Of a stretch of 64,000 nucleotides of DNA, positions 7,236-39,881 are shown in pieces. The position numbers and the translations under genes were made by a program. Positions within the stretch are counted from its first letter, which is position 1. Each line of letters starts with the position of its first letter. The notes below the pieces were generated by a model. It did no database searches, was not told the DNA's origin, and worked only from the letters and a program-made list of their open reading frames with translations. The DNA is from a virus (taxonomy: Duplodnaviria; Heunggongvirae; Uroviricota; Caudoviricetes), in IMG/VR virus record IMGVR_UViG_3300028886_000034, positions 118,081-182,080 of that record. One strand, 5' to 3'.

Positions 7236-7254
7236 TAAATTAAATTTATACTTA

Positions 7255-7297
7255 AGTCAGTAGGAGGAGATAGAGATATTTTCTTCTACTGACTTTC
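7255..7297 (+). terminator. Hairpin, probable terminator
   Basis: AGTCAGTAGGAGGA...TTCTTCTACTGACT followed by a T-rich tail. Confidence 0.5.
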
Positions 7298-7343
7298 TAC
7301 ACATATCATTATGATTATTATATAGAAAGGATTTGATCTTATT

Positions 7344-7655: not shown

Positions 7656-7660
7656 ACTAA

Positions 7661-21898: not shown

Positions 21899-22188
21899 AG
21901 TAAAATTTGAGGCATGCATCCTAAAATTAATGCGAATTGCTGGAAAGTCCTAAAATTAAATATACTACAATGTATATAGTTAATAAATATTTAAATTGGA
22001 TAATCAGCAGGATATACTCTTATTAAAGAGAAATCTTCAACGACTAATTAAAGTTAACTAGTAATAGTTAAAACTTAAAGCACATTAACTCTATATAATA
22101 TAGAGATGATATAGTCTAATTGTATTCTTTATATAATGAAAATTAAATATCAGCTTATTTAATAAGTTATTAAAGTTGATGAATACAG
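21899..22188 (+). ncRNA. Group I intron 1 in MCP (290 nt, no ORF)
   Basis: Core: GAATTGCTGGAAA 21934, AATCAGCAGG 22002, TTCAACGACTA 22036, GATATAGTCT 22108. P1: exon GGATGT / GCATCC 21916 (U-G). P10: TGAGGC / exon-2 GCCTCA. P9.0: TGTATTC / GAATACA, then terminal G. Confidence 0.92.
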
Positions 22189-23036
22189 GGCCTCAGTTAG
22201 TTGCCCGCGAAGCTCTTACAGTCCTTCCCATGGACAAGCCCGAAATTGCTAAGAGCTTTATGAGAATTGTTGCCACTGTTGGTGGTAACGAGGTGGAAAT
22301 GCCCAACAACCGTGTTAGTGTTTCGACCGGTCAGGCATTTGGTGAATTGGGCCTCAATGTTGACATCGAGCCCATCAATGTTGTTATTTCAGGTAGCGGC
22401 GATCATATCCATCGTCTTGACCTTCTTGATCATATGAGCAATAGAGCTGGTCAGCCTGGTAAGTTCAATCCTACCAATGCTCACATTACTTCTGCTGATT
22501 TCGCCATTGTTGGCGTTACTCGCAGTGACGGTAAGGAAATTGATATCCATGTTGAGCCTGAAGACAGTGGCGCTTTTAGCTTTGCTGTTGAGTGCGATGG
22601 TATTGAGGATATCGTTTCTGGTAATATCAATTATACGACTGGTGTCTTCTCAATTTCTTCGACTCGTGAACATGCCAGTGGCGTGAAGGTTGAAAGTGTC
22701 CGTATTGTTGGTTCAATGACTCAGGCCGAGGAGATGTACGCTAATAAGGTTCACCTTAAGAATACATACGTTAAGTTCCGCGCCGAAGACATCGAGATTC
22801 AGACTGACTGGACGATCCAGGAAGAGCAGGACTATAAGGCCTACTTCGACATCGACATCCAGACTCAGCTTGTTGACCATATGGGTAAGATTATTGCTAT
22901 GGATATCGACCGTCGAATCCTTAATAAGCTTATTCGTGAGACTGAGCTTTTCAATCCTACCTCCTGTGGTAATGGCACCAGTGATGCCGATAGATTTACG
23001 TTTGATCGTAGACCTATGGCTAACTTTGCTTGGGGT
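22189..23036 (+). CDS. Major capsid protein exon 2 of 4
   Basis: Contains TDWTIQEEQDYKAYFDIDIQTQLVDHMGKIIAMDIDRRIL, comparable to the gp23 'wt.E.aQDl.a.hg.D.e.el...l..ei..eI.reil' region. Confidence 0.9.
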
Positions 23037-23355
23037 ACTTTTGTGCTCACTTTATAGAGTAATCTATAATGAAATCAAATATGAAATGCTGGAAGGTCCT
23101 TAGAGTCAAGTAAACTAAAAGTTGTTTAAAGCTAAATGTTGATAATTACTTGAATTGGATAATCAGCAGGATTAAATGAAAACTATAAATAAAGGTTAGT
23201 TATATTTTAATCTTCAACGACTACTTGTGTAAGACATGCTTATATGTTAAGCCAATGTCTGATGTTTATTTACCCTATAAAATATATTATGAATTTTAGG
23301 GATAAGATATAGTCTATAGTCCTTTTAATAAGTTACTAAAGTAGCTGTGGACTAG
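23037..23355 (+). ncRNA. Group I intron 2 in MCP (319 nt, no ORF)
   Basis: Core: AAATGCTGGAAG 23084, AATCAGCAGG 23161, TTCAACGACTA 23213, AAGATATAGTCT 23304. P9.0: TAGTCC / GGACTA, then terminal G. P1 is short (GGGT / GCTC). Frame is restored. Confidence 0.88.
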
Positions 23356-23415
23356 CCTAAAGAATGGAATAATCAAATCGTTGTTAAGCTCAACGATTTA
23401 AGTGCTAAAATTTAT
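23356..23415 (+). CDS. Major capsid protein exon 3 of 4 (60-nt micro-exon, PKEWNNQIVVKLNDLSAKIY)
   Basis: Not in the ORF track. Open frame between the intron 2 terminal G and the intron 3 P1 (exon AAATTTAT / GTAGGTT). Confidence 0.85.
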
Positions 23416-23883
23416 CAAAAAGTAGGTTAACTTCCTACTGTCAAGGTAAGCATATTGAGAAATCAGTATGTAGTGGTTTAATTCTTTCATATTCAATTAA
23501 ACTCCCTATCACCTGAATTGCTGGAAACTCTTAATAGTTAGTAAAACTACAACATAAATATGAAATATGGTTATATGTTAATGTTATGAAAATATAAAAA
23601 ATTTACTAAATAGTATAAGGTTAAACCCTAAGTACTTTTTTATTGCAATAGACAACCAGCATCTAAGTCCGAACAGGAAAAAGTTCAACGACTATCCCCC
23701 CTAAGGGGAGTACACTCAAGTGAGTGGAAGTGGGTGAATCCAAACAGGTAATGCTGTGGAATGAGATATAGTCTGTGCTTTAGCGAAAACTAAAGAAGGC
23801 TATTGTATATAGCCTGTGAGAAATTGACGACTTCTCATGAACAAAAACCTCTATAAATTAATTAAAGAAAATTATTGATCCTC

Positions 23884-23911
23884 TTGACTAAATGGATTTG
23901 AATGGTATACT
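23884..23911 (+). promoter_or_regulatory. Intron-internal sigma70-type promoter for tnpB
   Basis: TTGACT-16 bp-TATACT with a TG extension, then AAAGGAGG RBS at 23941. Confidence 0.55.
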
Positions 23912-23957
23912 TCTGGGTATAGAAGTTCAAATCTTTATAGAAAGGAGGATAACTAGA

Positions 23958-25235
23958 ATGAAACGAACAATTAAGCAGCGACTTAAACATCTTACTAAAG
24001 ATGAGTATTTGATTTTAAAAGAACTTACACACGAAGCTAAAAACATAGTTAATGAAGCTATTTATTTGAAGAGGCAGCATTTTTTTAATACTGGTTTATA
24101 TCTAGATGACAAAATGACTAGGAAACAAATGGAAGATAATCCTAGTTATAGGATCTTGAATTCTAATATGAGCCAACAGATTATTAAAAAAGTTGATTTA
24201 ATGTTTAAATCGTTTTTTGGATTGTTGAAAGCTAAAAAGTCTGGGAAAGTATCTTCTGATAGAAAAATACATATGCCAAGATATTTGGATAAAAATGGAT
24301 ATTATACGCTAATTATTCAAGAAGTTCCAAAATTCGAAAATAATAAATATTATGTGCCTTATACGTGGAAGTTTTCAAAAACTCATAAAAGAATAGCTAT
24401 TAAATTACCTTTAACTTTGGTTAATAAAAAAGATATGATAAAAGAAATTAGAATTGTTCCAAGGTATAATGCTAAGTTTTTCGAAGTACATTATGTGTAC
24501 AATATCGAAGAGACACAACCTCAAATTAATTTTGACTTATCAAAAGTATTAGCAATTGACCTAGGGATAAATAATTTTGCTACCTGTGTAACTACAGAAG
24601 GTAAATCATTTATTATTGATGGTAAAAAAATGAAAAGTTATAATCAATGGTATAATAAAAGAAATGCTATTCTTAGTGGGATTAAGGATAAACAAAAATT
24701 TGGAAATGACTTAACTAAGCAACAGATTTGTCTTACCTTAAAAAGAAATAATCGAATATTGGATTATATTAGTAAAGCTTCTAAGTATATTATTAATTAT
24801 TGTATTTCTAATAAAATAGGTACAATTATTTTAGGGTATCGTGAAGACTTTCAAGATAAGTTCAATATAGGAGTAAAAAACAACCAAATTTTTGGGTATA
24901 CACCTTTTGGGCAGTTTAAGTTTAAATTAGAATATTTATGTGATGAAGTTGGTATTAGCTTAATAATCCAAGAAGAGAGTTATACATCTAAAGCATCTTT
25001 TTTAGATAACGATGATATTCCTATATATGATAAAAACAATCTCCTTGAATACTCTTTCTCAGGGAGACGCATTAAAAGAGGATTATATAAATCTGCTAAG
25101 GGTATATTAATTAATGCTGATGTTAATGCTGCATTTAATATTCTTCGTAAAAGTAAGATTGTGCCTAACGAAATTGTTAGACTATATTCTAGTGGTGCTC
25201 TGAGCACACCTGTAAGAATAAGGCTACATCAATAG
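23958..25235 (+). CDS. tnpB: TnpB RNA-guided endonuclease (IS200/IS605-type, no C-terminal Zn-finger cysteines), intron-encoded
   Basis: RuvC-I LAIDLGINN, QEESYTSKASFLD, RuvC-III INADVNAAFNILRK, C-terminal TPVRI. Start moved to the ATG after AAAGGAGG (track start 23892). Confidence 0.92.
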   Translation: MKRTIKQRLKHLTKDEYLILKELTHEAKNIVNEAIYLKRQHFFNTGLYLDDKMTRKQMEDNPSYRILNSNMSQQIIKKVDLMFKSFFGLLKAKKSGKVSSDRKIHMPRYLDKNGYYTLIIQEVPKFENNKYYVPYTWKFSKTHKRIAIKLPLTLVNKKDMIKEIRIVPRYNAKFFEVHYVYNIEETQPQINFDLSKVLAIDLGINNFATCVTTEGKSFIIDGKKMKSYNQWYNKRNAILSGIKDKQKFGNDLTKQQICLTLKRNNRILDYISKASKYIINYCISNKIGTIILGYREDFQDKFNIGVKNNQIFGYTPFGQFKFKLEYLCDEVGISLIIQEESYTSKASFLDNDDIPIYDKNNLLEYSFSGRRIKRGLYKSAKGILINADVNAAFNILRKSKIVPNEIVRLYSSGALSTPVRIRLHQ

Positions 25236-25281
25236 TAAACTTCTTACAAATTAATAATTTCTTTAATTATTAAGAGTTCAG

Positions 25282-25683
25282 GTTGACACGAATATGACCC
25301 AGCCCAATGTCCTTATCGCCAATCCTCTTGATCTGGCTTTATTCAAGAATACCTCTGACTATAAGTTTGAGGGCGATATCAAGGGCGGTGAGTACGGGGA
25401 GACTCCTGTTGCCGGTACACTTAACGACACCTGGAAGGCTCTTAGTACTCCTCTTATGCCTCAAGGTAAGATCCTTGTTCTTATCAAGCCCACTGATGAG
25501 GCTAACGCAGTGTTTGTCTATGCTCCTTATAAGCCCCTTGTTGTTTCGCCTTGGCCTCTTGGTCGTATTCCTTCGATGACCTTTATCAGCCGCTTTGCTA
25601 CGAGATTCATTCGTAGAGAGGGTGTTGGTATCCTTCGTGTCATCGGTGGAGAGAATGGCGGTTTCTATGGTGCTCGTGGCTAA
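25282..25683 (+). CDS. Major capsid protein exon 4 of 4
   Basis: VDTNMTQPNVLIANP...FVYAPYKP...TFISRF resembles the gp23 C-terminus (N.ii.sp, yAPY, f.tRY). Confidence 0.9.
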   Translation, partial: VDTNMTQPNVLIANPLDLALFKNTSDYKFEGDIKGGEYGETPVAGTLNDTWKALSTPLMPQGKILVLIKPTDEANAVFVYAPYKPLVVSPWPLGRIPSMTFISRFATRFIRREGVGILRVIGGENGGFYGARG

Positions 25684-25723
25684 TAGAAATTAGTACAGCA
25701 ATAAGAAATAGACAAATATAATT

Positions 25724-25765
25724 AAAAAAAAAACTACTATCCTCATAAGAGGGTAGTAGTTTTTT
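25724..25765 (+). terminator. Intrinsic terminator after MCP
   Basis: AAACTACTATCCTC-ATAA-GAGGGTAGTAGTTTTTT. Confidence 0.85.
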
Positions 25766-25871
25766 AATATATAAAACATACATATCGGCAATTTTTATAT
25801 TTTTTGCCGATATGTATACTGTTATTTCTAAAGTTCAATAGCAATATATAATGCAAATACTTCTTCAGGGT

Positions 25872-26372
25872 TTATTGAGGTATACCCTCACTAAATGCTA
25901 ACGATTTACCTCTAAATCTAATATCATTAGTAACTTCCTTACCAAACCAATATGGTGGTATAAACTTTTTAGATTCTGATATATTTGGAAACTCTACTTC
26001 TACTAAAACTAATCCTTTTAATTTACCTTTATAGATATGAATTACTGAATTAACACCTCTTAATGGAAGTAATGTTTGCGTTAAGCTTCCTTTAGATACT
26101 TTGTGCAAAGATTTCCATTCATCAGGGTCTAATTGTTTAATTACTTCTGTTCGGATCATTCCGTTTCCAATTTTAATAGCCATATCATATTTAAGTTTTT
26201 TGCCCTCAATAAATTCAATTTTTCTTGTCCTTAATTCGCCTTGGCCATCTAAAAGTATATAATCTTGAGTTACTGTTATAGCTAATTTAGGCAATATTTT
26301 AACTTCTTCAAAAGAAGGCATTTCTTTAACTATCCAAGTTCTTTCTATTTCTTGTCCCGACTTTAATGGCAT
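25872..26372 (-). CDS. CYTH-domain (triphosphate tunnel metalloenzyme) protein
   Basis: N-terminal EIER, LRTR, LVEVEF and C-terminal WFGKEVT are typical of CYTH proteins. Confidence 0.8.
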   Translation of the reverse strand: MPLKSGQEIERTWIVKEMPSFEEVKILPKLAITVTQDYILLDGQGELRTRKIEFIEGKKLKYDMAIKIGNGMIRTEVIKQLDPDEWKSLHKVSKGSLTQTLLPLRGVNSVIHIYKGKLKGLVLVEVEFPNISESKKFIPPYWFGKEVTNDIRFRGKSLAFSEGIPQ

Positions 26373-26427
26373 AATATAACCTCCTTTGTAGGATTGTTTG
26401 TATTCATTAATTTGTTCAGGATTAAGT

Positions 26428-26487
26428 AAAAAGAAACCAGTTTCACCATATCGTTTTTGCGATACTCTGTTTCAGGTTTCTTTTTTT
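26428..26487 (-). terminator. Probable terminator hairpin
   Basis: AAAAAGAAACC...GGTTTCTTTTT inverted repeat. Confidence 0.55.
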
Positions 26488-26495
26488 AGTTCTTA

Positions 26496-26771
26496 TTACA
26501 ACTTATACACATCACCGGCGCATTCGCACCTTTTCAGGTCTTCAGCGTCGTAGATGTGGTCATTGGTATATGCTACTTCGGATACGATAATATCCGAAAT
26601 AACAATACCATCTTCGCCACATAGTGTGGCTTCAAGAATCCGCTGAGGAAGATTGTTAACTTCCTCCTCAGCGGTAGCTCTGATAGCTGAAGATGCTGTC
26701 CAGCTATCCTCATCATAGAAGCTCCCATAATGGGAGACTTCCGCGTGGATGCAGAAAAGTTTTTTGGTCAT
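26496..26771 (-). CDS. Hypothetical protein
   Basis: 91-aa ORF with GAGGAGG RBS; higher GC than its surroundings. Confidence 0.65.
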   Translation of the reverse strand: MTKKLFCIHAEVSHYGSFYDEDSWTASSAIRATAEEEVNNLPQRILEATLCGEDGIVISDIIVSEVAYTNDHIYDAEDLKRCECAGDVYKL

Positions 26772-26773
26772 GG

Positions 26774-27193
26774 TTATCGTACCTCCTCTTTAACCATACA
26801 CTGTTTCTCCTGATTCCAAACCAACTCTGGAAAAGCCTTCAATGTCACTGGAGATTTTACACCCCAGTTCTTCCACGGTTCTTCAAAGAGCCACCTTGTC
26901 ACACCGTCTTCCGGGGTGGACGGCTTCGTTTTCTTTTTCCTTTTGGAGACTTTTTTGAACGCATCTCCAAAACAGGTAGAGATGATGCTTCTATCTCGAA
27001 GAAATAACTTTTTATTGCTGCTATTATTTTCCCCATAGAATTTCTGTAAAATTATTTCTGTGGGGATTCCACCAAGCCCTCGGTAAAACTCTTGGTTCTC
27101 GACCATAAAACGCATCAGGTCGAAAACCCGAAGGACTGGTACTGACGCGACATTTCTATTACCTGCCATGTTATCATCCTCCAATATATTCAT
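26774..27193 (-). CDS. Hypothetical protein
   Basis: 139-aa ORF; may start at the downstream ATG (MAGNR) after GGAGG. Confidence 0.6.
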   Translation of the reverse strand: MNILEDDNMAGNRNVASVPVLRVFDLMRFMVENQEFYRGLGGIPTEIILQKFYGENNSSNKKLFLRDRSIISTCFGDAFKKVSKRKKKTKPSTPEDGVTRWLFEEPWKNWGVKSPVTLKAFPELVWNQEKQCMVKEEVR

Positions 27194-27313
27194 AAAAATA
27201 ACATCAGATCCATTCTGACAAGCGAAAGACAGTTATAATAATATATATACAAGATTAAGTCTGAACAAATATAGAGACTAACTAAATTTATTGAAAGAGG
27301 TTGGTGATGGAAA

Positions 27314-27832
27314 ATGAGATATAGATTGATATTAAAAGAAGAAGCAGAACTGAAGAAACAACTGATATATCATATTAGTGGTGATTCAAATTTAGATAAA
27401 ATTATAATGAAACCTAGGGTACCAGATCAACCTATACAGGGAGAAGATAATAAAACTCCAAGGATTTCATTTGCTAAAACTATAGATGGCTGTTTAGCAG
27501 GTATATTCCCAATACATCCTGGTACAGATTTAGATGATCCTAGATATACAGAGTATCCAAATGGATATGATTTTTATGTGTATACACCAATAGGTAAGTA
27601 TACATCCGTTAGTAATGAAGATATTATAAAAAGAAGATTAGTTCCAGATGCAGGATTAAGTAAAGAAGTTTGGGTTACTTCACCTATCAAAGTTAAAAAG
27701 ATAGGTAAAATACACGTAGAACCATTTAATCCTAAGACTGCTAAAACTTTTGTGTATACTATGTATTTTAAAGATCATACTAAAAAGGGGCTTGGCATAA
27801 AGTTTAAATGGAAATGGGTGGATAAGACATGA
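27314..27832 (+). CDS. Putative internal head protein (MRYRLILKE leader); possible ADP-ribosyltransferase-like fold
   Basis: Shared leader. YHIS...RISFA...EVW spacing is reminiscent of ART catalytic strands (inference only). Confidence 0.6.
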   Translation: MRYRLILKEEAELKKQLIYHISGDSNLDKIIMKPRVPDQPIQGEDNKTPRISFAKTIDGCLAGIFPIHPGTDLDDPRYTEYPNGYDFYVYTPIGKYTSVSNEDIIKRRLVPDAGLSKEVWVTSPIKVKKIGKIHVEPFNPKTAKTFVYTMYFKDHTKKGLGIKFKWKWVDKT

Positions 27833-28491
27833 GTAGAATTACTTATCATTACTTATTAAATGGATCTATGTTACAAGGTAATTATATTTATGATTCTATG
27901 CATCTTCTAAATAAGTCTTTACAGAATAGAGTTTGGTCTGGATATATTACCGATAGAACCAAGAAAATAATGTCTATCTATTCTGATCCAGATACACCAG
28001 ATAATAAAAAAGAATGGGCCAACCAGATGTTAAATAAATTGAAGAATGCAAATACTCCTAAAGATAAAATGAATATCTTGTTTAGTGATAGTTATAATAG
28101 AATGGGTTTAGAAAAAATATTAGGTAAACCATATTTTGGAGTATGGGGAATACACACTACTCCTGCAGATTTATTTGGAGTTGACCCTAGGTATAAAGTT
28201 AGATTAAAGATTGATTGTGATGTGATAGACCCAGATTGTATTATTATTAAAGTTAGTACGGGTAATTATTCTAAATTTAGTAGAAGTATGGATAAAGCAT
28301 ATTTTAAATATTCTCCTAGTATATATGATAAATATTGTAAACCATTTCAAACTAATGAAACTGATGATATAGTAAAAGATGCATATGATAGAGGGCCTAT
28401 TAGAACAGTATCTTCATCAGTTCCAGATATAATTTTCTTTTTACCAAGGATTAAATTTAATCAAGAAGATATTGAGGTGTATAAGAAATGA
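27829..28491 (+). CDS. Hypothetical protein, tandem paralog A
   Basis: MSRITYHYLLN, LGKPYFGV.G..TTPADL and IFLPRIKFNQEDIE are shared with the next gene. Confidence 0.75.
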   Translation: MSRITYHYLLNGSMLQGNYIYDSMHLLNKSLQNRVWSGYITDRTKKIMSIYSDPDTPDNKKEWANQMLNKLKNANTPKDKMNILFSDSYNRMGLEKILGKPYFGVWGIHTTPADLFGVDPRYKVRLKIDCDVIDPDCIIIKVSTGNYSKFSRSMDKAYFKYSPSIYDKYCKPFQTNETDDIVKDAYDRGPIRTVSSSVPDIIFFLPRIKFNQEDIEVYKK

Positions 28492-29060
28492 GTCATATAA
28501 CTTATCATTATCTTTTAAATAAAACGAATAAAACTGCTACTAATAATAGTATGGATTTAAAGGGGAACTATTTGTATGATTTGAATTGTAACCCAGATAA
28601 GAAGAAACAAGAGATAATTTATAAAGGTTATCTAGATCAATTTTTATCTAGTGCTCCTGAAGAACTTGTTAAATTATGTAAGCAAAGAAAAAGCTTAAAG
28701 GATCAAGTTAATTTTTGGTTTGAAATGGGCTATAAGAAAAATTTTGAAAAAGTATTAGGTAAACCTTATTTTGGGGTATTTGGGCTATACACAACTCCTG
28801 CTGATTTATTAACAACTTGTTATAGATTAAAAATAGATTTAGATACAATAGATCCAGATGTATTAGTTATTAGATTTGGTAATGGAAATTACAAATACAA
28901 TGAATCTAATTGGAATAAATATTGTAAACCATTTATACACAATAAAGAAAAATCTTTAGAGTTTGTAAAGAAGGGTTCTTTTAAAGTTCTTCCATCTATA
29001 GTTATATTTTTACCAAAGTTAAAATTTAATAAAGAAGATATTGAGGAGTATAACCCATGA
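28488..29060 (+). CDS. Hypothetical protein, tandem paralog B
   Basis: MSHITYHYLLN, LGKPYFGVFGLYTTPADL, IFLPKLKFNKEDIE. Confidence 0.75.
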   Translation: MSHITYHYLLNKTNKTATNNSMDLKGNYLYDLNCNPDKKKQEIIYKGYLDQFLSSAPEELVKLCKQRKSLKDQVNFWFEMGYKKNFEKVLGKPYFGVFGLYTTPADLLTTCYRLKIDLDTIDPDVLVIRFGNGNYKYNESNWNKYCKPFIHNKEKSLEFVKKGSFKVLPSIVIFLPKLKFNKEDIEEYNP

Positions 29061-30151
29061 GATACAGGCTTATACTAAAAGAAGAACAAGAATCTATAGG
29101 TACATTTGAAGATACTTTAGATATACTTAATTCATTAGATCCTGAAGGTAAGAAGTATGCGATGCCTAGTGGAAGAAGAATAGACACACCTAATTTTTTA
29201 TTTAGGTATGTTATTAAAGATAAAGGTACTCCTGTAGCATTTATTGAATTGTATCCATACAATATGAAATCTAAAACTACAGCTTATATAGCATATGCTG
29301 TTAAACCGGAGTATCAGCATAGAGGCTTAAGTAAAAAGTTATTAGATAAAGCAGTTGACTGGTGTAGAAGAAATAATTACACAAGATTAATGTATAGAGT
29401 TGATGGGACTAATATAAAATCAATTGGTGCTGCTACTAAGTATGGGTTTAAACTTAAGAAAGTTAGACATGATTTAGTTGGTGTAATGAATATAAGTAAA
29501 ACTAGTTTACAAGAATCTGGTAATAGGATGATGTCCACAAAAAGATATGCTATACTTAATGATATGGTAGATATAACAAATATAGTTAAAGCCAATTTGA
29601 ATAAAGTTTATCTTGATACAGACCTTCATCTTACTGAGTCTAATATAGAACGATACATTAAACTTCAAAATAAAGTAGTTAGTAATAACGATATCTTTAT
29701 ATGTTTGGGGGATATTATATATGATGAAGACAGTGAAAAATTGAGAGATCTCTGGTATAACTACATAGCTCAACTAAATGGTAAATATAAGTTTTTAGTA
29801 TTAGGTAATAATGATATCTTAAGTAGAAGTTTCTATAAAGTCAAATGTGGTTTCGATTCAGTTTCTTTATCTATTAAGTTAGGCAATATTATCTTTACAC
29901 ATTGTCCTATTAAGACTGGTAGTAGTAAGTTAATTAACATACATGGTCATGTTCATAAAACGTTATTTAATACTTTAACTAATACATATAGTTCTGAAAG
30001 AAGAATTTGGATTAACCCTACGGGTAAGAAGTTTATGTATCCCAAACCATATACCAGTACTGAATACTATAAGACAGAAATCATAACTAAGCCAGTTAAT
30101 TTAGTACAAGTGTTAAGTTTAGTGAAAGAAGATAATGAGGTGTATAAGTAA
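29057..30151 (+). CDS. GNAT acetyltransferase - metallophosphoesterase fusion with MRYRLILKE leader
   Basis: GNAT motif A: AVKPEYQHRGLSKKLL, plus N..SI..A.KYGF. Phosphoesterase motifs: DLH, LGD, GNND, THCP, HGHVH. Confidence 0.8.
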   Translation: MRYRLILKEEQESIGTFEDTLDILNSLDPEGKKYAMPSGRRIDTPNFLFRYVIKDKGTPVAFIELYPYNMKSKTTAYIAYAVKPEYQHRGLSKKLLDKAVDWCRRNNYTRLMYRVDGTNIKSIGAATKYGFKLKKVRHDLVGVMNISKTSLQESGNRMMSTKRYAILNDMVDITNIVKANLNKVYLDTDLHLTESNIERYIKLQNKVVSNNDIFICLGDIIYDEDSEKLRDLWYNYIAQLNGKYKFLVLGNNDILSRSFYKVKCGFDSVSLSIKLGNIIFTHCPIKTGSSKLINIHGHVHKTLFNTLTNTYSSERRIWINPTGKKFMYPKPYTSTEYYKTEIITKPVNLVQVLSLVKEDNEVYK

Positions 30152-30774: not shown

Positions 30775-30785
30775 ATTAAACCTTA

Positions 30786-31292: not shown

Positions 31293-31452
31293 AACAAATA
31301 ATAGAAATACCTCTTCTGATTAAAATATTAATTATTTATAGTCGGAGGAGGTATTTTAAAAACTATGAATAATATATAAACTCAAATCTACCAAGACTTT
31401 TTATAAGATCTTCGGTAGAAATTTTTTATTGTAAAGGATGTCGATTTAAAGT

Positions 31453-32280
31453 ATGAATAATGTTGTTAGAGATTTACCTACAATGAAGTCTGTCCATTTC
31501 CCTGTGTTTGAGGTTATCACTCCAGTTACTGGTGTTAGTTTTAATGTAAGAGGACTGACAGTTGCTCAGGAGAGTGCGCTTTATGAGAGTGCGGTTTCGC
31601 AGCAAAAGTATATTTCAATGATTAACCAGACATTATTTGAATGTATTGAAGATAAGAGAGCTCCTTATGATACACTTGAAGGTTTTGAAAAGAATCTTAC
31701 TGAGTCAGACAGATATGCTCTTATGTATGGCGTATTAGTATCAACTTATGGGGATGAAATTGAAATTACAGTTCCTTGTAGGCAGTGTGGTAAAGAAAAT
31801 AAGATGAAGATTAAGCTTTCTGAATATATGACTATTGAGCAGTATAAGGGCAATGAAAATATATTTGATAAAGAACTTGAAGTTGAATTGCCTATATCCA
31901 AGTATAAAGCAGTTATTAAGATGCCTACTCTGTGGGATGAGAGACAGGTTAACTTACTCAAAAATATTGACAGGGATATCTTAACTAAGATGAGTTTATA
32001 TACCATGGTTAAAAAGCTGATTATTCCTGGATCTGAAGTTCAGCCTGACGGGTCTGTGGTAGAGAATAACTATGTGGTTGATAAGAATGTTGAGATTTAT
32101 GGTATTATTAATAATCTTCCTGCTAAGGATAATAAGACTATTCTTAAGACTTGGAAAGATAATTTTGATAAGTATAAGATTGATTTTAAGGTGGAGGGGA
32201 ATTGCTCGTCTTGTAATGCTGAATTTAAGCAGACAATCAATATTGGTCAGGAGTTGTTTCGTTTATTACAAGAGATCTGA
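31453..32280 (+). CDS. Baseplate hub/tail assembly protein (T4 gp26-like)
   Basis: VRGLTVAQE, D...L..G....TYGDEIE, CxxC, MPT and a second CxxC near the C-terminus. Confidence 0.65.
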   Translation: MNNVVRDLPTMKSVHFPVFEVITPVTGVSFNVRGLTVAQESALYESAVSQQKYISMINQTLFECIEDKRAPYDTLEGFEKNLTESDRYALMYGVLVSTYGDEIEITVPCRQCGKENKMKIKLSEYMTIEQYKGNENIFDKELEVELPISKYKAVIKMPTLWDERQVNLLKNIDRDILTKMSLYTMVKKLIIPGSEVQPDGSVVENNYVVDKNVEIYGIINNLPAKDNKTILKTWKDNFDKYKIDFKVEGNCSSCNAEFKQTINIGQELFRLLQEI

Positions 32281-32293
32281 TGAAGAAATAGCA

Positions 32294-32515
32294 ATGATTC
32301 CAGTATCGAATGCTATGCTGGAAAACAAAGCTATTTATATGGAAATGTTTAAGAATGGAGATTATACGGTTTTTGAGAATATGCTGTATTCTGATTTTAA
32401 AAGATTAATGGACTGGAAAATTAATTTTGAAAAAGAGAAAAAGCAACAAATGGAAGAATCTATGGCAGAAACTAAAAAGAATACCTCTAGGAGATCTTAT
32501 ACTCGTAAAAAATAA
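32294..32515 (+). CDS. Small protein, T4 gp51-like assembly catalyst (tentative)
   Basis: Follows the gp26-like gene; ENMLYSDFKRLMDWK and basic C-terminus. Start uncertain (frame is open from 32072). Confidence 0.45.
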   Translation: MIPVSNAMLENKAIYMEMFKNGDYTVFENMLYSDFKRLMDWKINFEKEKKQQMEESMAETKKNTSRRSYTRKK

Positions 32516-32679
32516 ATCTGAAAAAAATTCTTAACAAATATTGAGATGAGATAAAAATGGGATAGAGATCCCGAGCATAAAACATTGAAGAAGTTTTTTG
32601 TATAAAGATTGTATTAGAATTGTGCGCAGATTTTAATAGAATTACTTTGTATAAAGAACTTCAATTGGAGTGATGTTTT

Positions 32680-33186
32680 ATGGAGTATGCAAGTAAATCT
32701 GTGGCTGGCACAGGATTAGGACTGGGTATCGCTGGTACAGCGTTAGGTCTTCTTGATATGGCTGGTGGTTTATCTGGTTTGTTAGGTAACAGACAGCCTC
32801 AGGATCCGGGTGATAGACCTGTTACTAGATATGAGATGGGTCTTCATCAGGAAATTAATGATAAGAAGATTGAGATTGCCGAATTGAAGAGTAACAGATA
32901 TACTGATTTTGTTGCTAATGGTCTTCAGCAGCAAATTAGTGGTCAGGCTGTTTGGAATGCTACTCAGACTGCTGGTTTAAGTAATCTTCAGGGTCAGATC
33001 GCTCAGTTACAGAGTGTAACCAAGCTGATGATTCCTAACGAGAACCTTGCACCAGGTTATGGTAGAGCTGCAGTTATGGGTGTTTCCTCATTACCACCTT
33101 ATTTTGTTCCCTATCCTCTTCCTCCTATTAGTGGTGGAGATACTGGTACAGTAGCTAAAACTACTGATTCTACTTCGGGTTCATAA
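32680..33186 (+). CDS. Hypothetical protein (MEYASK...GLGLGIAGTALGLL type)
   Basis: Gly-zipper hydrophobic N-terminus and coiled coil; GGAG RBS. Confidence 0.75.
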   Translation: MEYASKSVAGTGLGLGIAGTALGLLDMAGGLSGLLGNRQPQDPGDRPVTRYEMGLHQEINDKKIEIAELKSNRYTDFVANGLQQQISGQAVWNATQTAGLSNLQGQIAQLQSVTKLMIPNENLAPGYGRAAVMGVSSLPPYFVPYPLPPISGGDTGTVAKTTDSTSGS

Positions 33187-33208
33187 GAATTAAATTAAAG
33201 TAATTATA

Positions 33209-33240
33209 AAGGAGTTCTTCTTATATAAGGAGAACTCCTT
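33209..33240 (+). terminator. Hairpin/terminator
   Basis: AAGGAGTTCTTCTTA-TA-TAAGGAGAACTCCTT. Confidence 0.6.
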
Positions 33241-33280
33241 ATTTACAAAATATATTCTTATGGATTTGGAGGATGAATGA

Positions 33281-33649
33281 ATGTTTAGTAAAAATCAAAT
33301 TGTAAATGGACTCATCAAATATGTTGAGTTGGAAGTTATATCTAAAGTAGAAGACAAAGCCTTACAGATAGTTTTAGGTATAGGTATAATTGCTTTAAAA
33401 AGAAATCCGGATCTTATAGATTCTGTTTTAAAGAATCCATTTATAAGTTATCTTGTAAAAGAAACTGAAGATGGTAAATATGATCTTGATGAAGTTTTTT
33501 CTATTATAGATGAGACTTTAAAAACTTATGGAAAGTTACCAGTAACTATTCCAGCAATAAAGTTTATATCACCTAATGAAAAGACTTTAAAGTTTTCTAC
33601 TGAAGATATTGCTAAACTTAAAACCTGTATAGAGGAGGGTGCTAATTAA
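33281..33649 (+). CDS. Hypothetical protein
   Basis: 122-aa ORF with GGAGG RBS. Confidence 0.75.
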   Translation: MFSKNQIVNGLIKYVELEVISKVEDKALQIVLGIGIIALKRNPDLIDSVLKNPFISYLVKETEDGKYDLDEVFSIIDETLKTYGKLPVTIPAIKFISPNEKTLKFSTEDIAKLKTCIEEGAN

Positions 33650-33651
33650 AA

Positions 33652-34002
33652 ATGGCTGAGGGAATCAATATATTTAAAGCAAATGGATCTAATGGTTCTT
33701 CACTATTAGATGCGCTTAATACAATGGATAATAGTTCAACTAGTAATGTAGTTGAAGAAACACCTAAGCATACATTTTTAGATCATATTAAAATGAGAGC
33801 TGTTGAAGAGTATAATGATGTTGTTACTTATATGGAATTGGCCAAAATGACTGAAGAGACTGAATTTAAAAAAATGCTGACAGATATAGCTAAAGAAGAA
33901 ATGACTCATGGCAAATGTTTAGAGCATATTATTATGCATTCTAGAGAAATGCCTGCAGATATAGAAAATGCTAGATCTGAAGCAGATGAAGCTATGAAAT
34001 AA
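33652..34002 (+). CDS. Ferritin-like (di-iron helix pair) protein
   Basis: EEYNDVVTY...IAKEEMTH: an E...ExxH pattern in helical context. Confidence 0.55.
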   Translation: MAEGINIFKANGSNGSSLLDALNTMDNSSTSNVVEETPKHTFLDHIKMRAVEEYNDVVTYMELAKMTEETEFKKMLTDIAKEEMTHGKCLEHIIMHSREMPADIENARSEADEAMK

Positions 34003-34016
34003 ATTAAAGACAATAC

Positions 34017-34056
34017 AAAAAGAAGATCCCTAGTATATAGGGGTCTTCTTTTTTTT
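34017..34056. terminator. Bidirectional intrinsic terminator
   Basis: AAAAAGAAGATCCCTA/TAGGGGTCTTCTTTTTTT between convergent genes. Confidence 0.85.
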
Positions 34057-34064
34057 AATTGGGC

Positions 34065-34343
34065 TTATCTGTTAGAAACAGATTTACCTTCAATGATGTT
34101 ATCAGGATAATAATCTCCAGTAACAAAAGCATTACCTCTAAATATTATATCAGGACTATTAAGTAGATAACTCATATGGCCATCCATATTAAGTAAATGG
34201 TCTATAAAAGTTTGTTTAATAGCCATCTTTTTAGAGATAATTTCTGAAGGGCTCATTTTATCTATTTCTTCTTTAGTGAAAGAAGTATAGAATTGAGCAT
34301 CAGTCCAATTGTTTAAGATAGAGTTCATATTAGTATTATCCAT
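34065..34343 (-). CDS. Hypothetical protein
   Basis: 92-aa ORF with GAGG RBS. Confidence 0.65.
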   Translation of the reverse strand: MDNTNMNSILNNWTDAQFYTSFTKEEIDKMSPSEIISKKMAIKQTFIDHLLNMDGHMSYLLNSPDIIFRGNAFVTGDYYPDNIIEGKSVSNR

Positions 34344-34359
34344 AATATTTACCTCTATC

Positions 34360-34797
34360 TCAGTGTCTTACATTTATAGTGACTACAGAATCTTTAATTA
34401 ACTCTACACTAGAAATCATATCTCTAGTGAGGTATATTCTGCAGTTATCTTCAAGTTCAGCTGTATCAACATAAAAACCTTCTGAATCCTTAACCGTTAA
34501 AACCAACACATAACCATTTACTTCCTGGAACCTGAGTTCTTTAGTAAGACTCCCATCCTCAAGAAGAGTATTATATTCTTCTTTGGATAACCATAACTTC
34601 TTAGTTTCACATAATGTACTAACTAAGTATTCAATAGAATCATCTACAGAATACTGGGTAGTATCATCAAGTTCTTTAGAAAGTAATGCCATCTTTGCTA
34701 AGAGACATAACTTTCTACCTAAGAAGTATTCCTCTTTACCTCCTTTTACAAATATAGTACTGCTGGTGTTTCTTAAGTTGACCATATCATTGTTCAA
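34360..34797 (-). CDS. Hypothetical protein
   Basis: 145-aa ORF with AAGGAG RBS. Confidence 0.65.
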   Translation of the reverse strand: MNNDMVNLRNTSSTIFVKGGKEEYFLGRKLCLLAKMALLSKELDDTTQYSVDDSIEYLVSTLCETKKLWLSKEEYNTLLEDGSLTKELRFQEVNGYVLVLTVKDSEGFYVDTAELEDNCRIYLTRDMISSVELIKDSVVTINVRH

Positions 34798-35034
34798 CTC
34801 CTTCTACTATGGAATATGCCATAGTGGTCCACCTGTATTATGTCCTCACAGGAAAAGTGGTACACCTTAAATAAGTTCCAGTGGACTTATTTAAAGCCTT
34901 AAAACTAATCTAAATAAAATTGATTAGCTTTAAAACCACTAACATAATATATTTACAAAATTTGGAATAAGGAGTCTGAACAAATAAGGAGAACTCTTAT
35001 TATTACTTGATTTTTAAAGGAAGTGAATATATAA

Positions 35035-37956
35035 ATGCCTATTACATATACTTGGGCTGAAGTAGAACCTGTACATGTAGAACAGTATATTACTGCTGAA
35101 AGAAATAATGAACAGAATGATATACTTCAGTCTAGAGATTTATTTTTATCTAGACGATTTGATGAGTATTATAAAAAAGTAGATATTGATAACTTATTTA
35201 ATTCATATACAACAAATTTAGATTGGAAAGAATCGGTAGATACATTTGATGATATTTTATTAAAGTATCCAACGCAAGAACAGATAGATACAACTTATAC
35301 TAAATTAGATACAGTTGTTAATACATATGAAGAGTTATTACAATTATATCCAAATAATTTTGATGATATTGAGTGGCAAGAACCAGTAGATAATGTTGAA
35401 GATATTGAACCTAAATATCCTCAGCCTGATGGAGAATGGGGAGTAGAAGTATTAAGTACTCATGAAAAGTATGCATATGATCCTATAACAGATACTTGGC
35501 ATAAAACAATATCTTTACCTGAAGATAAGTGGAGAGTAGATTTAGTAGATGGTACAAAGTATGTATATGATGCTGAGTCAAAAGCCTGGAAATTATTGGA
35601 TGCGCCAGTACAAGATGGTTGGACAATAAATGTAAAGGATACAAATTATACTTATAGATATGATGAACCTACTAATACATGGATACCTATAAGTGCAAAT
35701 GCTATTCCATTAGCTACAACGGAATTAGATGGTTTATTAAATAAAACTGATTATGCATTTATTAGATCATTAGGATTAGAATCAGTTTTTAAGGATATGG
35801 GATTAATCGATGAGAATGGTAATGTGGTAGATGTTCAAGGTATAGTTAATGCAAGTATAATTCCTACTATTTATTTAAAGATGTCTCAAATGGAAGAGAA
35901 GATGCTTCCATTAGGTTCAGTTATACCATTTATGTTTAATACAAATGTACCTCCAGCAGGTTTTGTCTTTGCTGAAGGTCAAGAGTTATTAAGGGAAGAG
36001 TATCCAGATCTTTGGGAAAAAATTTCTACTGAAGTAGATTTAGAAGGAAATCCATTAATTATAGAAGATGCTGATAGATATGATTATCCTGGTAAATTTA
36101 CTAAGGGTGATGGCAATGCAACATTTAGGGTACCCAATCTAAAGGGATACTTCTTAAGAGCTTTGGATGATTCTGGAAGAGAATTTGGATCTAGACAAGG
36201 TGATTCAGTTGCAGAGCATAGTCATAAATTAATGGTAACTGGCGTAGGTTCAATTAATGAAGAAGATGAGGATTTAGTTCAAGAAGGTAGATTAGTTTTA
36301 TCAGGGACTACTTCTAATTCATTTTCAGATAGTACTGTTTTAGCTAGATATACTTCCGATGAATTAGAAACTAGACCTCAAAATATTGCATTAAGATACT
36401 TAGTTAAAGTTATACCAAGTGAAAAAGTTCCTACTATAGTTTCTAAAGGAAGTCTTCCAGATATTCATGAAGCTATTGATGCAGATACTTTAAATGGCCA
36501 TGCATCTTCATTAAATGCTCAGGCTGGTTATATTCCTGTTGCTAATGCACAAGGTAAGTTAGATGCGTCTTGGTTTAATACGGATTCTTTATTTGAGGAT
36601 ATTTTTGTTAATGATTCAGAAGTATCTAATGTTCCAGATTCAAACAAAATCCCTAGAACAACTAGTACTGGAAAATTGGATGAATGGTTAAGTGTAGTTA
36701 CAGAAGCTGACGTAGATAAATGGATCAGATATTTAGCAGCAGATCCTGAAGATGAAGCTAATATATTAGACTTATCTTCTTTTGATGATTCAAGAGATAG
36801 TTATAAGTATGTTGTAACTAAAAAGAAATTTATTAAGTTTTTAACAGGATTAAAATTATTCATAGGTACTTATGACCATCATTATACTACAGAAGATATT
36901 GAACCAACTTCTGAAAGAGGCTATATTAGTAATTCTGAAAGAAATAAGTATTCTAATAAATATACTAGAGAAGAAACCTATCAGCTAATATATAATTTCT
37001 TACAAAGTTATGTTCCTTTAACAGATATTTCTGTAGTTCCTTCTCCTAATAAAATTCCTATTGCTAATGAAGATGGTAAATTAGATTCAGGTTGGATGTC
37101 AGATCTTTTCTTAAATAAGATTGGTGAAAATAATAATACTGGTTATGCAGAAGTTTCTAATCACGAAATTACTATAAAATCTGGTATTTTAAATACTTCT
37201 GAATCTGGTAAAGTTACTATTCAGGGTGGCGGAGAATACAGTTTATCTGAGATGTCTCCTGCTAAAGCTGTTATATCTGGTTATGACAATGTTGAGTCTA
37301 AAGGTGGTAATATTGAACTTTATGCTGGTTCTGGAGGTAGTACTTCTTCCTCTATTGGAGGTAGTATAATTTTACAATCAGGTTCAGGTCAGTATTCAGA
37401 TGGTACTGTTGATTTAAATAATATTAAGGTAAATAAAAATAACACTATCTATACTAATGAAAATAATATAAGATTACAACAAAATGATGGCATCAATAAT
37501 ACTAATTATTTGGAAATCAATAATAATGGTATTACTTATGTTCATGATAACTTAGTTAATGATAGTGATGATTATAGATTAACTATTAATAAAGATGGTT
37601 CAGTTGAATCCAATAAACCTAATGTTGCTAATAGTTTAACTATACTTAATAATAAAGCATTAGTACCCTTTGAAAATTTACCTAAAACTTCTATTGTAAA
37701 TAATATTGGTAATTTTAGTTCTAACCAAACTATCAGTACTTATGAAGGTAATGTTATTGTTGGAAATATTGCACAAAATTGTAATTTAACTATTGCAGAT
37801 AGTACTAACAATTTAGAAGCTAGAGAACTTACATTTGTTTTAACTGCAACTGGTCCATATAGTATAAATTGGCCTGTAAATATCATTTGGACTAGTGGAA
37901 GATCTCCTTATATAGAATATGCGGAAACTGCGATAATAAAATTATTTAGAATTGGT
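35035..37956 (+). CDS. Tail collar/tail fibre protein, exon 1 of 2; join(35035..37956,39596..39874), 1066 aa
   Basis: Tail collar domain (PLGSVIPF, PAGFVFAEGQ, FRVPNLKGYFLR, ETRPQNIAL). Exon ends FRIG at the group I P1 U-G pair. Confidence 0.8.
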
Positions 37957-38259
37957 AATCGTTAATAACGATTGCCACTTCGCAAAGTAATTTGCGTCGT
38001 ATTTTTGATTGTGAATTACGGGAAAACCTACATAAGAGTCGTAACTACCGAATGGTAATAATGTTACGAATTAGGTAATCCGTAGCCGTGTTTAATAGTA
38101 ATTAAACAGGTTCAACGACTATCGTTCATAGAGCGAGTAAGATAGACGATATATTGCGTCAATGTCTGATGTACAAAGGCCACTATTATGTGGTTGAAGA
38201 TATAGTCTAGGCATGTTAACGTACAGCGAAAGCAATGTACGAGGTTATATAGATCACCC

Positions 38260-38289
38260 TTGACAATTCCGAACAAATTATGATACTAT
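38260..38289 (+). promoter_or_regulatory. Intron-internal promoter for tnpB (sigma70-type, with embedded AACAAATT)
   Basis: TTGACA-18 bp-TACTAT with a TG extension; AACAAATT at 38272. Confidence 0.5.
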
Positions 38290-38325
38290 TGTGGTATCGG
38301 AAACATAAAATTTGTCGGACAGGAG

Positions 38326-39486
38326 GTGATGACCTTGATAATACGTCACAAAATTGAATTGATTCTTAACAATAGCATGAAACGTTATTTTGATCAGTGT
38401 TTCGGATATAGTCGATATTCGTGGAATCAACTTCTTGGGATGCATAATAACGATAAAACGACTTCTTTAAACGAACAACTTAAGCAATTTAAAGCTGATC
38501 GACAGAAGTGGGAGTATGCTATGCCATCATATATCCCTACTTATGAAATGCAGAACCTTAAAGCAGCATTAAGACGAAAAACACATAAAGCTAATTTTAA
38601 ATCTAAAAAGAATCCTAAACAATCGTTTTATGTGGATAATTCTCGTTTTTTAAAAGGAAGCTTTTCGATAGTAGGTAAGCATATAAAGTTTGGTATCGTT
38701 TTGGGAAGAAAGTGTCGAATTCGTAAACAGGACCGATGGATGAAATTAACGGAGATACCAGCGTTTTTCGGTGAAAAAGATTTCCGTATTTTATCAGTAA
38801 CGATACTTAAAGAAGTAGATCGATACTATGCGTCATTTTGTATTCAGATTGATTATCGAAGTAAAACTACCGGAACGAATGCGGTTGGTATTGATCCGGG
38901 AGTGCATACAGTGATGACACTTTCAGATGGTACAAAATACGAATCACCGAAAACACTCAAGAAACTAGATCAAAAAGCGAAATACTATCAAAAGCGTATG
39001 TCGAAACGCTATATACGAAATGCTAAGAAACAAAGTAAGCGTTATATGAAAGCGAAAATCAAGCATCAGAAAACGCTTCGCCGTAAGAATCAAATCAAAA
39101 CAGACTTTATGCATAAGGCAACAACTGAGATCGTAAAGCGAAACAATTATATCGCTTGGGAAGACTGTAAATCATCGCGACTTATGAGGAATCATAAACT
39201 CGCCAGATCGATTGGCGAATCGTGTTGGTTTACACTAAAAACGATGTTGGAGCAAAAATGTCAAATGCATAGAGCCACTTTTGATTTAGTTGATCCGATA
39301 AACGCCGCAACACAAACTTGCAGTGAGTGCGGGCATCGTTTTGAAGGTGATGAAAAGCTGAATTTAAATGACAGAGTATATATCTGCCCTGAATGCGGAT
39401 TAAAACTAGATCGAGACGTAAACGCTGCTCGAAACATTCTCAAGTTTTCGAAGCGTAAGCTGGCTGGGGCACAGCCATCCGAATAA
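38326..39486 (+). CDS. tnpB: TnpB RNA-guided endonuclease with Zn finger, intron-encoded
   Basis: N-terminal HTH-type segment (YFDQCFGYSRYSWN). RuvC motifs GIDPG, IAWED, DRDVNAARNI. Zn finger CSECG/CPECG. True start may be TTG 38335. Confidence 0.92.
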   Translation: MMTLIIRHKIELILNNSMKRYFDQCFGYSRYSWNQLLGMHNNDKTTSLNEQLKQFKADRQKWEYAMPSYIPTYEMQNLKAALRRKTHKANFKSKKNPKQSFYVDNSRFLKGSFSIVGKHIKFGIVLGRKCRIRKQDRWMKLTEIPAFFGEKDFRILSVTILKEVDRYYASFCIQIDYRSKTTGTNAVGIDPGVHTVMTLSDGTKYESPKTLKKLDQKAKYYQKRMSKRYIRNAKKQSKRYMKAKIKHQKTLRRKNQIKTDFMHKATTEIVKRNNYIAWEDCKSSRLMRNHKLARSIGESCWFTLKTMLEQKCQMHRATFDLVDPINAATQTCSECGHRFEGDEKLNLNDRVYICPECGLKLDRDVNAARNILKFSKRKLAGAQPSE

Positions 39487-39595
39487 CGCTGGAGTAGTCA
39501 TAAGACCTCCAGCAGTATCGGAGGCAGCTACGTTTGTACAGCGTTGAGCAAGGTCAGTAACGGAGTAATTCGTTGCGTAAGAACCTGCATGTCAG

Positions 39596-39874: not shown

Positions 39875-39881
39875 GTGAACT

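Follow-up and report, generated by a model that had tools for sequence, protein, structure and literature searches.

TnpB-carrying group I introns in essential genes of a large T4-like phage: probable transposase-less IStrons

The DNA described here (hereafter, the window) is a stretch of 64,000 nucleotides corresponding to bases 118081-182080 of the IMG/VR virus record IMGVR_UViG_3300028886_000034, a complete genome of 284,119 bp bounded by direct terminal repeats. The region is a T4-type morphogenesis block with the following genes: (i) a gp21-like prohead protease; (ii) a gp23-like capsid protein; (iii) a baseplate hub; and (iv) tail fibres. Its capsid gene and its tail-fibre gene are each split by a group I intron, named I3 and I4 respectively, whose only open reading frame (ORF) is tnpB, located 3' of the ribozyme core. 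Both introns are removed from RNA as whole units. Together with a third intron of the same genome (I5, in an RNA polymerase gene), they are probably IStrons (fusions of a group I intron and a tnpB element) that lack a transposase, and their TnpB would make RNA-guided cuts in intron-less alleles, leading either to homing of the intron or to the loss of a rival phage.

The capsid and tail-fibre genes and their introns

Records of this phage occur in runs of bovine and sheep gut metagenomes. Among cultured phages, megablast and tblastn searches with the capsid and tail-fibre genes returned no close relative, the sole match being a 61-nt stretch of ribozyme in Twort-like phages. The comparison genome (G001) is a complete 275-kb IMG/VR relative, intron-less at the sites studied in the genes for the major capsid protein (MCP), the tail fibre and the beta subunit of RNA polymerase (RNAP), with 72-80% nucleotide identity to the window in the capsid and tail-fibre genes. 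Intron borders were set by blastn and translation against these intron-less genes. As a check at the RNA level, contigs from three rumen metatranscriptome runs, each belonging to a different study, and from one DNA run (X1) were placed on window positions 21400-40400; being assembled contigs, the RNA data show joints and depth and cannot show RNA ends, strands or transcription start.

The gp23-like capsid gene contains three group I introns (I1, I2 and I3). In G001 the gene is unbroken (529 aa), and its alignment splits the window gene at 21898/22189, 23036/23356 and 23415/25282; the exons (274 + 848 + 60 + 402 nt) give an in-frame protein of 527 aa. Its features are listed below, where RF00028 is the Rfam family matched by the introns, omegaRNA (obligate mobile element-guided activity RNA) is the guide RNA of TnpB, and L029 and L041 are loci with related elements.

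21625-21898, + strand: MCP exon 1, gp23-like, ending in U (PHROG major head protein; collinear with the G001 gene; RNA joint)
21899-22188, + strand: I1, ORF-less group I intron of 290 nt ending in ACAG (RF00028, 32 bits, match at 21871-22139; absent from the G001 MCP gene)
22189-23036, + strand: MCP exon 2 (Pfam Gp23; 80% nucleotide identity to G001)
23037-23355, + strand: I2, ORF-less group I intron of 319 nt ending in CTAG (RF00028, 27.5 bits, match at 23017-23335)
23356-23415, + strand: MCP exon 3, 60 nt, 20 codons (matches G001 residues PREWNNQIVVKLNDLSAKIY)
23411-23415, + strand: TTTAT, last five bases of MCP exon 3, exon strand of helix P1 and putative target-adjacent motif (TAM); flank common to L029 and L041
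23416-25281, + strand: I3, IStron-like element of 1866 nt ending in TTCAG (borders from G001; RNA joint 23415>25282)
23470-23795, + strand: ribozyme core of I3 (RF00028, 43 bits)
23884-23911, + strand: promoter-like site TTGACT-16-TATACT with TG, inside I3 just 5' of tnpB (similar motif at the same place in L029)
23958-25235, + strand: tnpB of I3, 425 aa from an ATG after GGAGG (NF040570, 172 bits; PF01385, PF07282)
25130-25281, + strand: candidate omegaRNA scaffold and 3' splice-site region of I3 (from a reading of the sequence)
25282-25683, + strand: MCP exon 4 (80% nucleotide identity to G001)
25282-25301, + strand: putative guide template, the first ~20 nt of MCP exon 4 (predicted)

In I3 the ribozyme comes first, tnpB (its sole ORF) second and a structured 3' end last. 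Its ribozyme is 71-72% identical to those of L029 and L041; the 61-nt stretch, which matches the intron region of Twort nrdE at 87% identity, is the sole pointer to subclass IA2. In the I3 TnpB the zinc-finger cysteines are absent and a Gly occupies the usual position of the RuvC-II Glu, while D201, E339/E340 (in the motif EESYTSK) and D388 are invariant across 17 homologues. This motif falls where clades with a rearranged RuvC-II put an alternative glutamate, and such clades are regarded as active (PMC10691335). By analogy with them, the I3 TnpB would be an active nuclease of the RuvC-II-rearranged type. The 3' region has a stem (25211-25218/25241-25248), a hairpin (25251-25273) and a tail (AAGAGTTCAG); the stem arms and the tail are kept in L029 and L041, where the hairpin varies by compensatory changes.

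A separate observation on the capsid gene comes from RNA run X5, in which a contig ~90% identical to it (22707-23036 and 25282-25566) has 60 other letters linking 23036 to 25282. It represents the capsid message, spliced or intron-less, of a related phage from that sample.

The tail-fibre gene of G001 is likewise continuous, reading FRVD/NGEWIGW where the window reads FRIG, 1639 nt, NSEWIGW; the G001 site carries TAGAT. The features of the window gene are the following:

35035-37956, + strand: tail-fibre/collar exon 1 (Pfam Collar, PHROG tail fibre; collinear with G001)
37952-37956, + strand: TTGGT, end of tail-fibre exon 1, P1 exon strand and putative TAM (predicted)
37957-39595, + strand: I4, IStron-like element of 1639 nt ending in GTCAG (G001 alignment; RNA joint 37956>39596)
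37957-38226, + strand: ribozyme of I4 (RF00028, 59 bits, match at 37951-38226, above the gathering score)
38260-38289, + strand: promoter-like site TTGACA-18-TACTAT with TG, inside I4, 5' of tnpB (motif kept in L017, L057 and L060)
38326-39486, + strand: tnpB of I4, 386 aa, classical with zinc finger, sole ORF of I4 (NF040570, 198 bits)
39376-39595, + strand: candidate omegaRNA scaffold over the 3' end of tnpB and the 109-nt 3' untranslated region (UTR) of I4 (RNAalifold, conservation)
39596-39874, + strand: tail-fibre exon 2, 92 aa plus stop (in frame once spliced; matches G001; RNA joint)

The I4 ribozyme has a P1 extension (AATCGTT/AACGATT), an internal guide sequence (IGS) GCC, and a P9.0 pairing whose 5' strand (GGCATG, 38210-38215) and 3' strand (CATGTC, 39588-39593) lie on either side of tnpB, the omega-G being 39595. 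Its TnpB has the HTH, OrfB_IS605 and TNB domains; aligned to the TnpB of ISDra2 (8BF8/8EXA), it has GIDPG, WED, DRD and CxxC...CxxC all in place, with the RuvC D-E-D triad complete. The tnpB matches to PF01385, PF07282 and NF040570 all exceed the cut-off. The putative guide template of I4 would be the first ~20 nt of tail-fibre exon 2. The TnpBs of I3 and I4 had been described from the letters alone as apparently unrelated, and BLASTP agrees: no significant similarity was found between them beyond the RuvC-III motif, and the zinc-finger cysteines present in I4 are missing from I3.

The exact joints 21898>22189, 23036>23356, 23415>25282 and 37956>39596 occur in contigs of all three RNA runs, and none of the four was found in DNA run X1; therefore, I3 and I4 are each excised in one piece, at the element's own ends. 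Joint depths in the three RNA runs were 214/80/2491 for I3 and 19/9/148 for I4. Contigs of the I3 body had depths of 150/26/660, compared with 214-256/80-111/1500-2490 for spliced contigs. In run X6, intron-body RNA stood at 26 where the adjacent genes had 1-2, and hence intron RNA accumulates. The elements are thus taken out of the mRNA entirely and at their own borders, so that capsid, tail-fibre and polymerase proteins are made intact.

All upstream exons end in U and all introns end in G, as group I chemistry demands. Regarding these descriptive points, the original prediction stands: the RF00028 matches, the G001 borders and the RNA joints bear out two group I introns holding only tnpB; the intron ends are those it gave (TTCAG for I3, GTCAG for I4, ACAG for I1 and CTAG for I2); and the G001 genes, continuous at the I1, I2, I3 and I4 sites, supply the comparison with an intron-less relative that it had suggested.

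Related elements and the search for a transposase

TnpA, of either the Y1 or the serine type, had been noted as absent from the window, and a search of the rest of the genome had been recommended. Searches with PF01797 and PF00239 gave no match in the entire 284-kb genome, window included. The same genome encodes four TnpBs, three of them intron-borne, so the earlier count of two TnpB introns was right about both and short of the genome total by one (plus a fourth, CRISPR-type TnpB described at the end). The third intron, I5, lies at genome 211171-212962 (minus strand; L021:6172-7963), measures 1792 nt and splits an Rpb2-type RNAP beta gene which is continuous in G001 (TEM-Y/K-SDF vs. TEM-Y/P-SDF). 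Its flank is AAATGT and its 3' terminus CCAG; TTTCAG was considered as the 3' end and rejected, as it results in a stop codon and the G001 alignment places the end at CCAG. Compared with I4, I5 has a TnpB 42% identical and a ribozyme 75% identical. G001 encodes no TnpB at all.

Other large phage-type contigs carry I4-type elements (TnpB 68-92% identical), in genes for the terminase large subunit (TerL; L019:921-2548), the N-terminal part of RNAP beta' (L057:2110-3768) and three others (L017/L018/L056; L058; L059). Elements 81-88% identical to I4 sit in other genes, and their similarity to it ends within a few bases of the element ends. L060 is a more distant member of the clade which, like I5, ends in CCAG. 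I3-type elements (TnpB 58-68% identical) were found in the same capsid context (P0002), in a DnaB gene just before the Walker A motif (L029:3480-5314) and in an acetyltransferase-domain gene (L039/L041); all those examined follow TTTAT and end in TTCAG. A further TnpB relative (P0129) was seen in an RNAP context. Overall, such elements are hosted by at least eight phage genes that are not homologous to one another, namely those for MCP, tail fibre, RNAP beta, RNAP beta', TerL and DnaB, an acetyltransferase-domain gene and genes of unknown function. The DnaB, RNAP beta' and TerL sites fall at conserved motifs of essential genes. The related elements score 48-76 bits against RF00028, and each TnpB lineage is paired with its own ribozyme lineage, which makes two independent ribozyme-TnpB partnerships. 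In 12 related elements no ORF besides tnpB was found, and neither a Y1 tnpA nor a remnant of one.

Outside these elements, the I3 TnpB is 52-56% identical to abundant TnpBs of Fusobacterium and Paenibacillus. In turn, no close bacterial relative of the I4/I5 TnpB clade turned up in a set of 5.8 billion proteins, with identity dropping from at least 39% inside the intron-borne cluster (on large contigs) to at most 36% outside it. A search of IMG/VR with the I3 TnpB gave no match, a 17-nt right-end pattern in IMG/VR hit 12 loci of which nine were chance matches, and a pattern scan of metagenomes gave no elements beyond those otherwise found. Among cultured phages, six TnpB loci had no RF00028 match at E up to 0.01. 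In one such phage, the Staphylococcus jumbo phage LY01 (OR836606.1, 259 kb), the 600 nt preceding a tnpB whose sole annotation is 'mobile element protein' contain the group I core motifs TCAACGACTA and GATATAGTC, and GTCAG lies ~150 nt 3' of the gene (L062:880-2840). Since these core motifs were missed by Rfam at that threshold, the absence of ribozymes in cultured phages cannot be claimed.

The spread of copies over unrelated genes is what would be expected if these were ordinary non-autonomous group A IStrons, moved in trans by a Y1 TnpA of the host or of a co-resident element, in which TnpB only restores the element after excision and the phage is one more replicon hit. This explanation, here judged rather unlikely, agrees with the presence of copies in at least eight non-homologous genes; with the TTTAT target and TCAG end, which equal those of bacterial group A IStrons (PMC4227781); with the identity of I3-type TnpBs to the abundant Fusobacterium and Paenibacillus proteins; and with the fact that all eight IStrons of Clostridioides difficile 630 are also without a full-length tnpA (PMC10690162). 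Nevertheless, none of the elements examined contains tnpA or leaves space for a remnant of it; the subterminal hairpins at the two ends are dissimilar, whereas the Fusobacterium relatives have matching CTCCCAC/GTGGGAG at both ends; the I4/I5 clade lacks a close relative outside the intron-borne cluster; and TnpA excision in a lytic cycle is not known from any phage. The combination that the original prediction had named as pointing to an ordinary IStron (a tnpA elsewhere in the genome, with copies at many unrelated loci) was therefore found in its second half, in TerL, RNAP beta', DnaB, acetyltransferase-domain and other genes, and not in its first.

Fit between the elements and their sites is visible at both ends. 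The last four exon bases of eight I4-clade elements, including I5, are TGGT, TGAT, TGGT, TGGT, AGGT, AGAT, ATGT and ATGT; the IGS of the same elements, in the same order, are GCCA, GTCA, GCCA, GCCA, GCCT, GTCT, GCAT and GCAT, and thus complementarity is perfect at every site. The P9.0 pairing, with strands ~1.4 kb apart, covaries as well (GGCATG/CATGTC, GGCAT/ATGCC, GGCGT/ACGCC). The 3' flanks differ among all elements, as expected for a guide supplied by the exon.

As for selection on the protein, the ratio of nonsynonymous to synonymous rates (dN/dS) is 0.10-0.16 in pairs of I4-type TnpBs, with one exception at 0.23, and 0.15-0.28 in pairs of I3-type TnpBs, with dS up to about 2. TnpB is under strong purifying selection. 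These values bear on the very improbable case that the elements are stranded relics, with inactive TnpB and RNA, which persist because imprecise loss from an essential gene is lethal. Fixed introns do lose their targets, and the DNA run examined holds no intron-less allele, as such relics would have it. But all tnpB ORFs examined are intact, with dN/dS of 0.10-0.28 at dS up to 1-2; the 3' UTR is conserved above the level of the ORF in most pairs; and there has been recent movement between genes (92% identical TnpBs in TerL and RNAP beta').

In 10 of 15 element pairs, the 3' UTR (109-116 nt) shows higher conservation than the ORF (e.g., 95% vs. 78%, 89% vs. 73%), most clearly in the pairs I4-L057 and I4-L058. 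For the last ~220 nt of eight elements, RNAalifold gave a common fold with 50 pairs, 15 of them with compensatory changes. Part of this 3' fold is predicted to sequester bases that also form P9.0, a situation reminiscent of the conflict reported between splicing and formation of the guide (PMC10690162). The same prediction would suit a TnpB kept for a role other than cutting DNA: it might bind RNA and so regulate or chaperone splicing, in the manner of a maturase that brakes the 3' splice site, or it might regulate late gene expression independently of its nuclease. Indeed, the TnpB of a C. botulinum IStron represses splicing with or without an intact active site (PMC10690162), and purifying selection alone is silent on which activity is selected. 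That role is nonetheless improbable: the I4 clade keeps the RuvC residues and the zinc finger, the I3 clade shows no variation at D201, E339/E340 and D388, and a protein that only binds RNA could lose such residues, as exapted TnpBs do (PMC10691335).

Finally, the promoter-like sites within I3 and I4 are, in total count, not above shuffled sequences in either intron and, hence, only their conserved position counts as evidence.

Known IStrons and the proposed RNA-guided homing

The original prediction had regarded these introns as a newly recruited system. In this respect it does not hold: the elements fit the published class of IStrons, whose layout they share, and tnpB-only copies, phage copies and the idea of homing are all in the literature (PMC4227781, PMC10690162, PMC13565253). 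The interpretation is, in consequence, only partly new. Four known systems are relevant for comparison.

Group A IStrons are defined by a 5' ribozyme of subclass IA2, an ORF B of IS605 type, insertion after TTGAT, ATTAT or TTTAT, and a TCAG end (Tourasse 2014, PMC4227781). Like CdISt1, the CdiIStrons of C. difficile and FnISt1 of Fusobacterium, the elements described here have a 5' ribozyme, an IS605-type tnpB downstream and ends that coincide with the splice sites; they also share a T-ending pentanucleotide target (TTTAT for I3), the TCAG end, the frequent lack of tnpA and the unrelated loci. They differ from them in (i) the host, a 284-kb T4-like phage (gp23/gp21-type), and the targets, which are essential phage genes; (ii) the lack of tnpA or a remnant in any copy examined; (iii) the dissimilar left and right hairpins; (iv) the flanks of the I4 clade, which are TGRT-like with a covarying IGS (AATGT for I5); and (v) a TnpB lineage without zinc finger and with a rearranged RuvC-II.

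Group B IStrons are of IS607 type. Those of the C. botulinum phages c-st and D-1873 (CbISt3/4), together with CboIStron, resemble the present ones in being IStrons on a phage genome; ORF-B-only IStrons and IS607-type IStrons in C. botulinum phages had already been listed (PMC4227781). For a bacterial IStron, TnpB with its omegaRNA has been shown to cut the empty site, and splicing, which severs guide from scaffold, competes with the omegaRNA, the two outcomes being mutually exclusive (Zedaveinyte 2023, PMC10690162). In contrast to the elements described here, group B IStrons have a serine TnpA (or a remnant), a GG-ending target (TGGG), a CGG end and an exon ending in G instead of U. They are on record in C. 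botulinum phages and in chromosomes of Bacillota, but not in the genes for capsid, tail or RNA polymerase in a T4-like jumbo phage. In the literature searched, no paper was found that describes IStrons of jumbo or virulent phages.

Phage group I introns with protein homing endonucleases (T4 td with I-TevI, Twort with HNH) likewise occupy conserved sites of essential genes, and in both cases spread would be expected through the cutting of intron-less alleles in co-infection. Here, by contrast, the nuclease would be RNA-guided, the ORF follows the ribozyme core instead of lying in a peripheral loop, and specificity would be re-set automatically through the flanking exon. The last group, tnpB-only IS200/IS605 elements of bacteria (e.g., in Fusobacterium mortiferum, P0107), belongs to the TnpB clade of I3 and also has no adjacent tnpA; unlike the introns, these elements have no ribozyme (~90 nt separate the upstream ORF from tnpB), have matching hairpins at the left and right ends, and disrupt the genes they hit.

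Beyond what was known, the present genome contributes three copies placed in essential genes of one large T4-like phage, no trace of a transposase, dissimilar end hairpins and splicing seen in natural RNA, as well as a clade of TnpBs that has no close relatives in bacteria, a lineage whose TnpB is rearranged and without zinc finger, and conserved internal promoter-like sites.

Under the preferred reading, TnpB-guided cutting of intron-less alleles, the following steps are envisaged: (i) transcripts that are unspliced, or that start internally, would be the source of an omegaRNA, with the 3' end of the element serving as scaffold and the first ~16-20 nt of the downstream exon as guide; (ii) the loaded TnpB would cut DNA where the end of the upstream exon (the TAM, TTTAT or TGRT-like) directly abuts the downstream exon; (iii) the target so cut would be the intron-less allele of a co-infecting phage; and (iv) recombinational repair from the intron-bearing genome would copy the element in (homing), or else the rival would be eliminated. 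The omegaRNA and the use of guide and TAM, like cleavage, are modelled on IS200/IS605 elements and bacterial IStrons. For I3 and I4, the downstream exon does begin where a TnpB guide is expected to start and the upstream exon ends at the expected position of the TAM. Thus, the assignment of guide and TAM made in the original prediction fits as to position, with TTTAT preceding three of three related I3-type elements, while the RNA, TAM use and cleavage are put forward by analogy. No intact TAM-plus-guide target was found in the phage's own genome, which would mean self-immunity.

Several points weigh against this reading. The omegaRNA and its ends, TAM use and DNA cleavage all come from analogy, and so does the activity of the I3-type TnpB, which is without the canonical RuvC-II glutamate. 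The 5' flank is also needed by the ribozyme for P1, and the IGS covaries with it; therefore, conservation of the flank is not independent evidence of a TAM. The flank of the I4 clade varies (TGGT/TGAT/AGGT/AGAT/ATGT), and hence its TAM would have to be short or fast-evolving. The one DNA run examined holds no intron-minus allele of this phage, and in G001, the only complete relative, 3-6 of the 20 guide positions are mismatched; no natural target was found in either. Lastly, the TnpBs of L019 (TerL) and L057 (RNAP beta') are 92% identical in non-homologous genes; homing alone, as first proposed, is thus insufficient, since the elements reach new sites.

In any case, the homing mechanism is most likely, we infer, for the maintenance of these elements and their spread between related phages, while new genes may possibly be reached by means of a TnpA acting in trans or by reverse splicing after a change of the guide sequence. 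A bolder version of the preferred reading can be offered only tentatively. In this version, the I4/I5 TnpB clade, seen here on large phage-type contigs only, would be a true transposase-free homing endonuclease; the internal promoter would yield a ribozyme-less, unspliceable tnpB-omegaRNA-exon transcript which bypasses the conflict between intron and guide; and new genes would be reached through mutation of the 3-4-nt IGS, the guide being re-set by the new exon.

RNA-guided homing by TnpB-only IStrons is an open idea in the literature: in a 2026 review, intron homing is said to be implied by such IStrons, with experimental proof still to come (PMC13565253). Homing is classically measured in phages, by mixed infection, and this genome supplies three elements in essential genes with exact borders and with predicted TAMs and guides. 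It also raises the puzzle of the route by which transposase-less elements enter new genes. Furthermore, the compact TnpBs (one of them without zinc finger) and their scaffolds are candidate reagents for genome editing.

Other observations in the genome

The fourth TnpB (genome 75976-77490), a 504-aa frame without zinc finger, lies outside any intron and is followed by approximately ten direct repeats with a 66-nt period (genome 75976-78340 in all; L020:5977-8340). It was considered as an IStron and rejected, given the lack of a ribozyme, the lack of a clean insertion relative to G001 and the 66-nt-period array that follows. The gene and its CRISPR-like repeat array would fit a TnpB-derived mini-CRISPR. 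It adjoins a DNA polymerase fragment that begins with the C-terminal end of an intein (...VHN/TDS).

Within window positions 21400-40400, by far the highest depth of RNA contigs is at 32178-34079 (4465-8120 in X7, compared with 1200-2500 for the capsid gene); the ORFs of that region (32680-33186, 33281-33649 and 33652-34002) gave no match to PHROG families.

Further group I introns occur in both genomes. G001 has its own two at 188590-188817 (minus strand) and 68726-68979, scoring 89.6 and 34 bits. The genome under study has an ORF-less one at 31737-31972 (minus strand; L006:1501-1736; RF00028, 47 bits), the ribozyme of which is 62-64% identical to those of I4 and I5.

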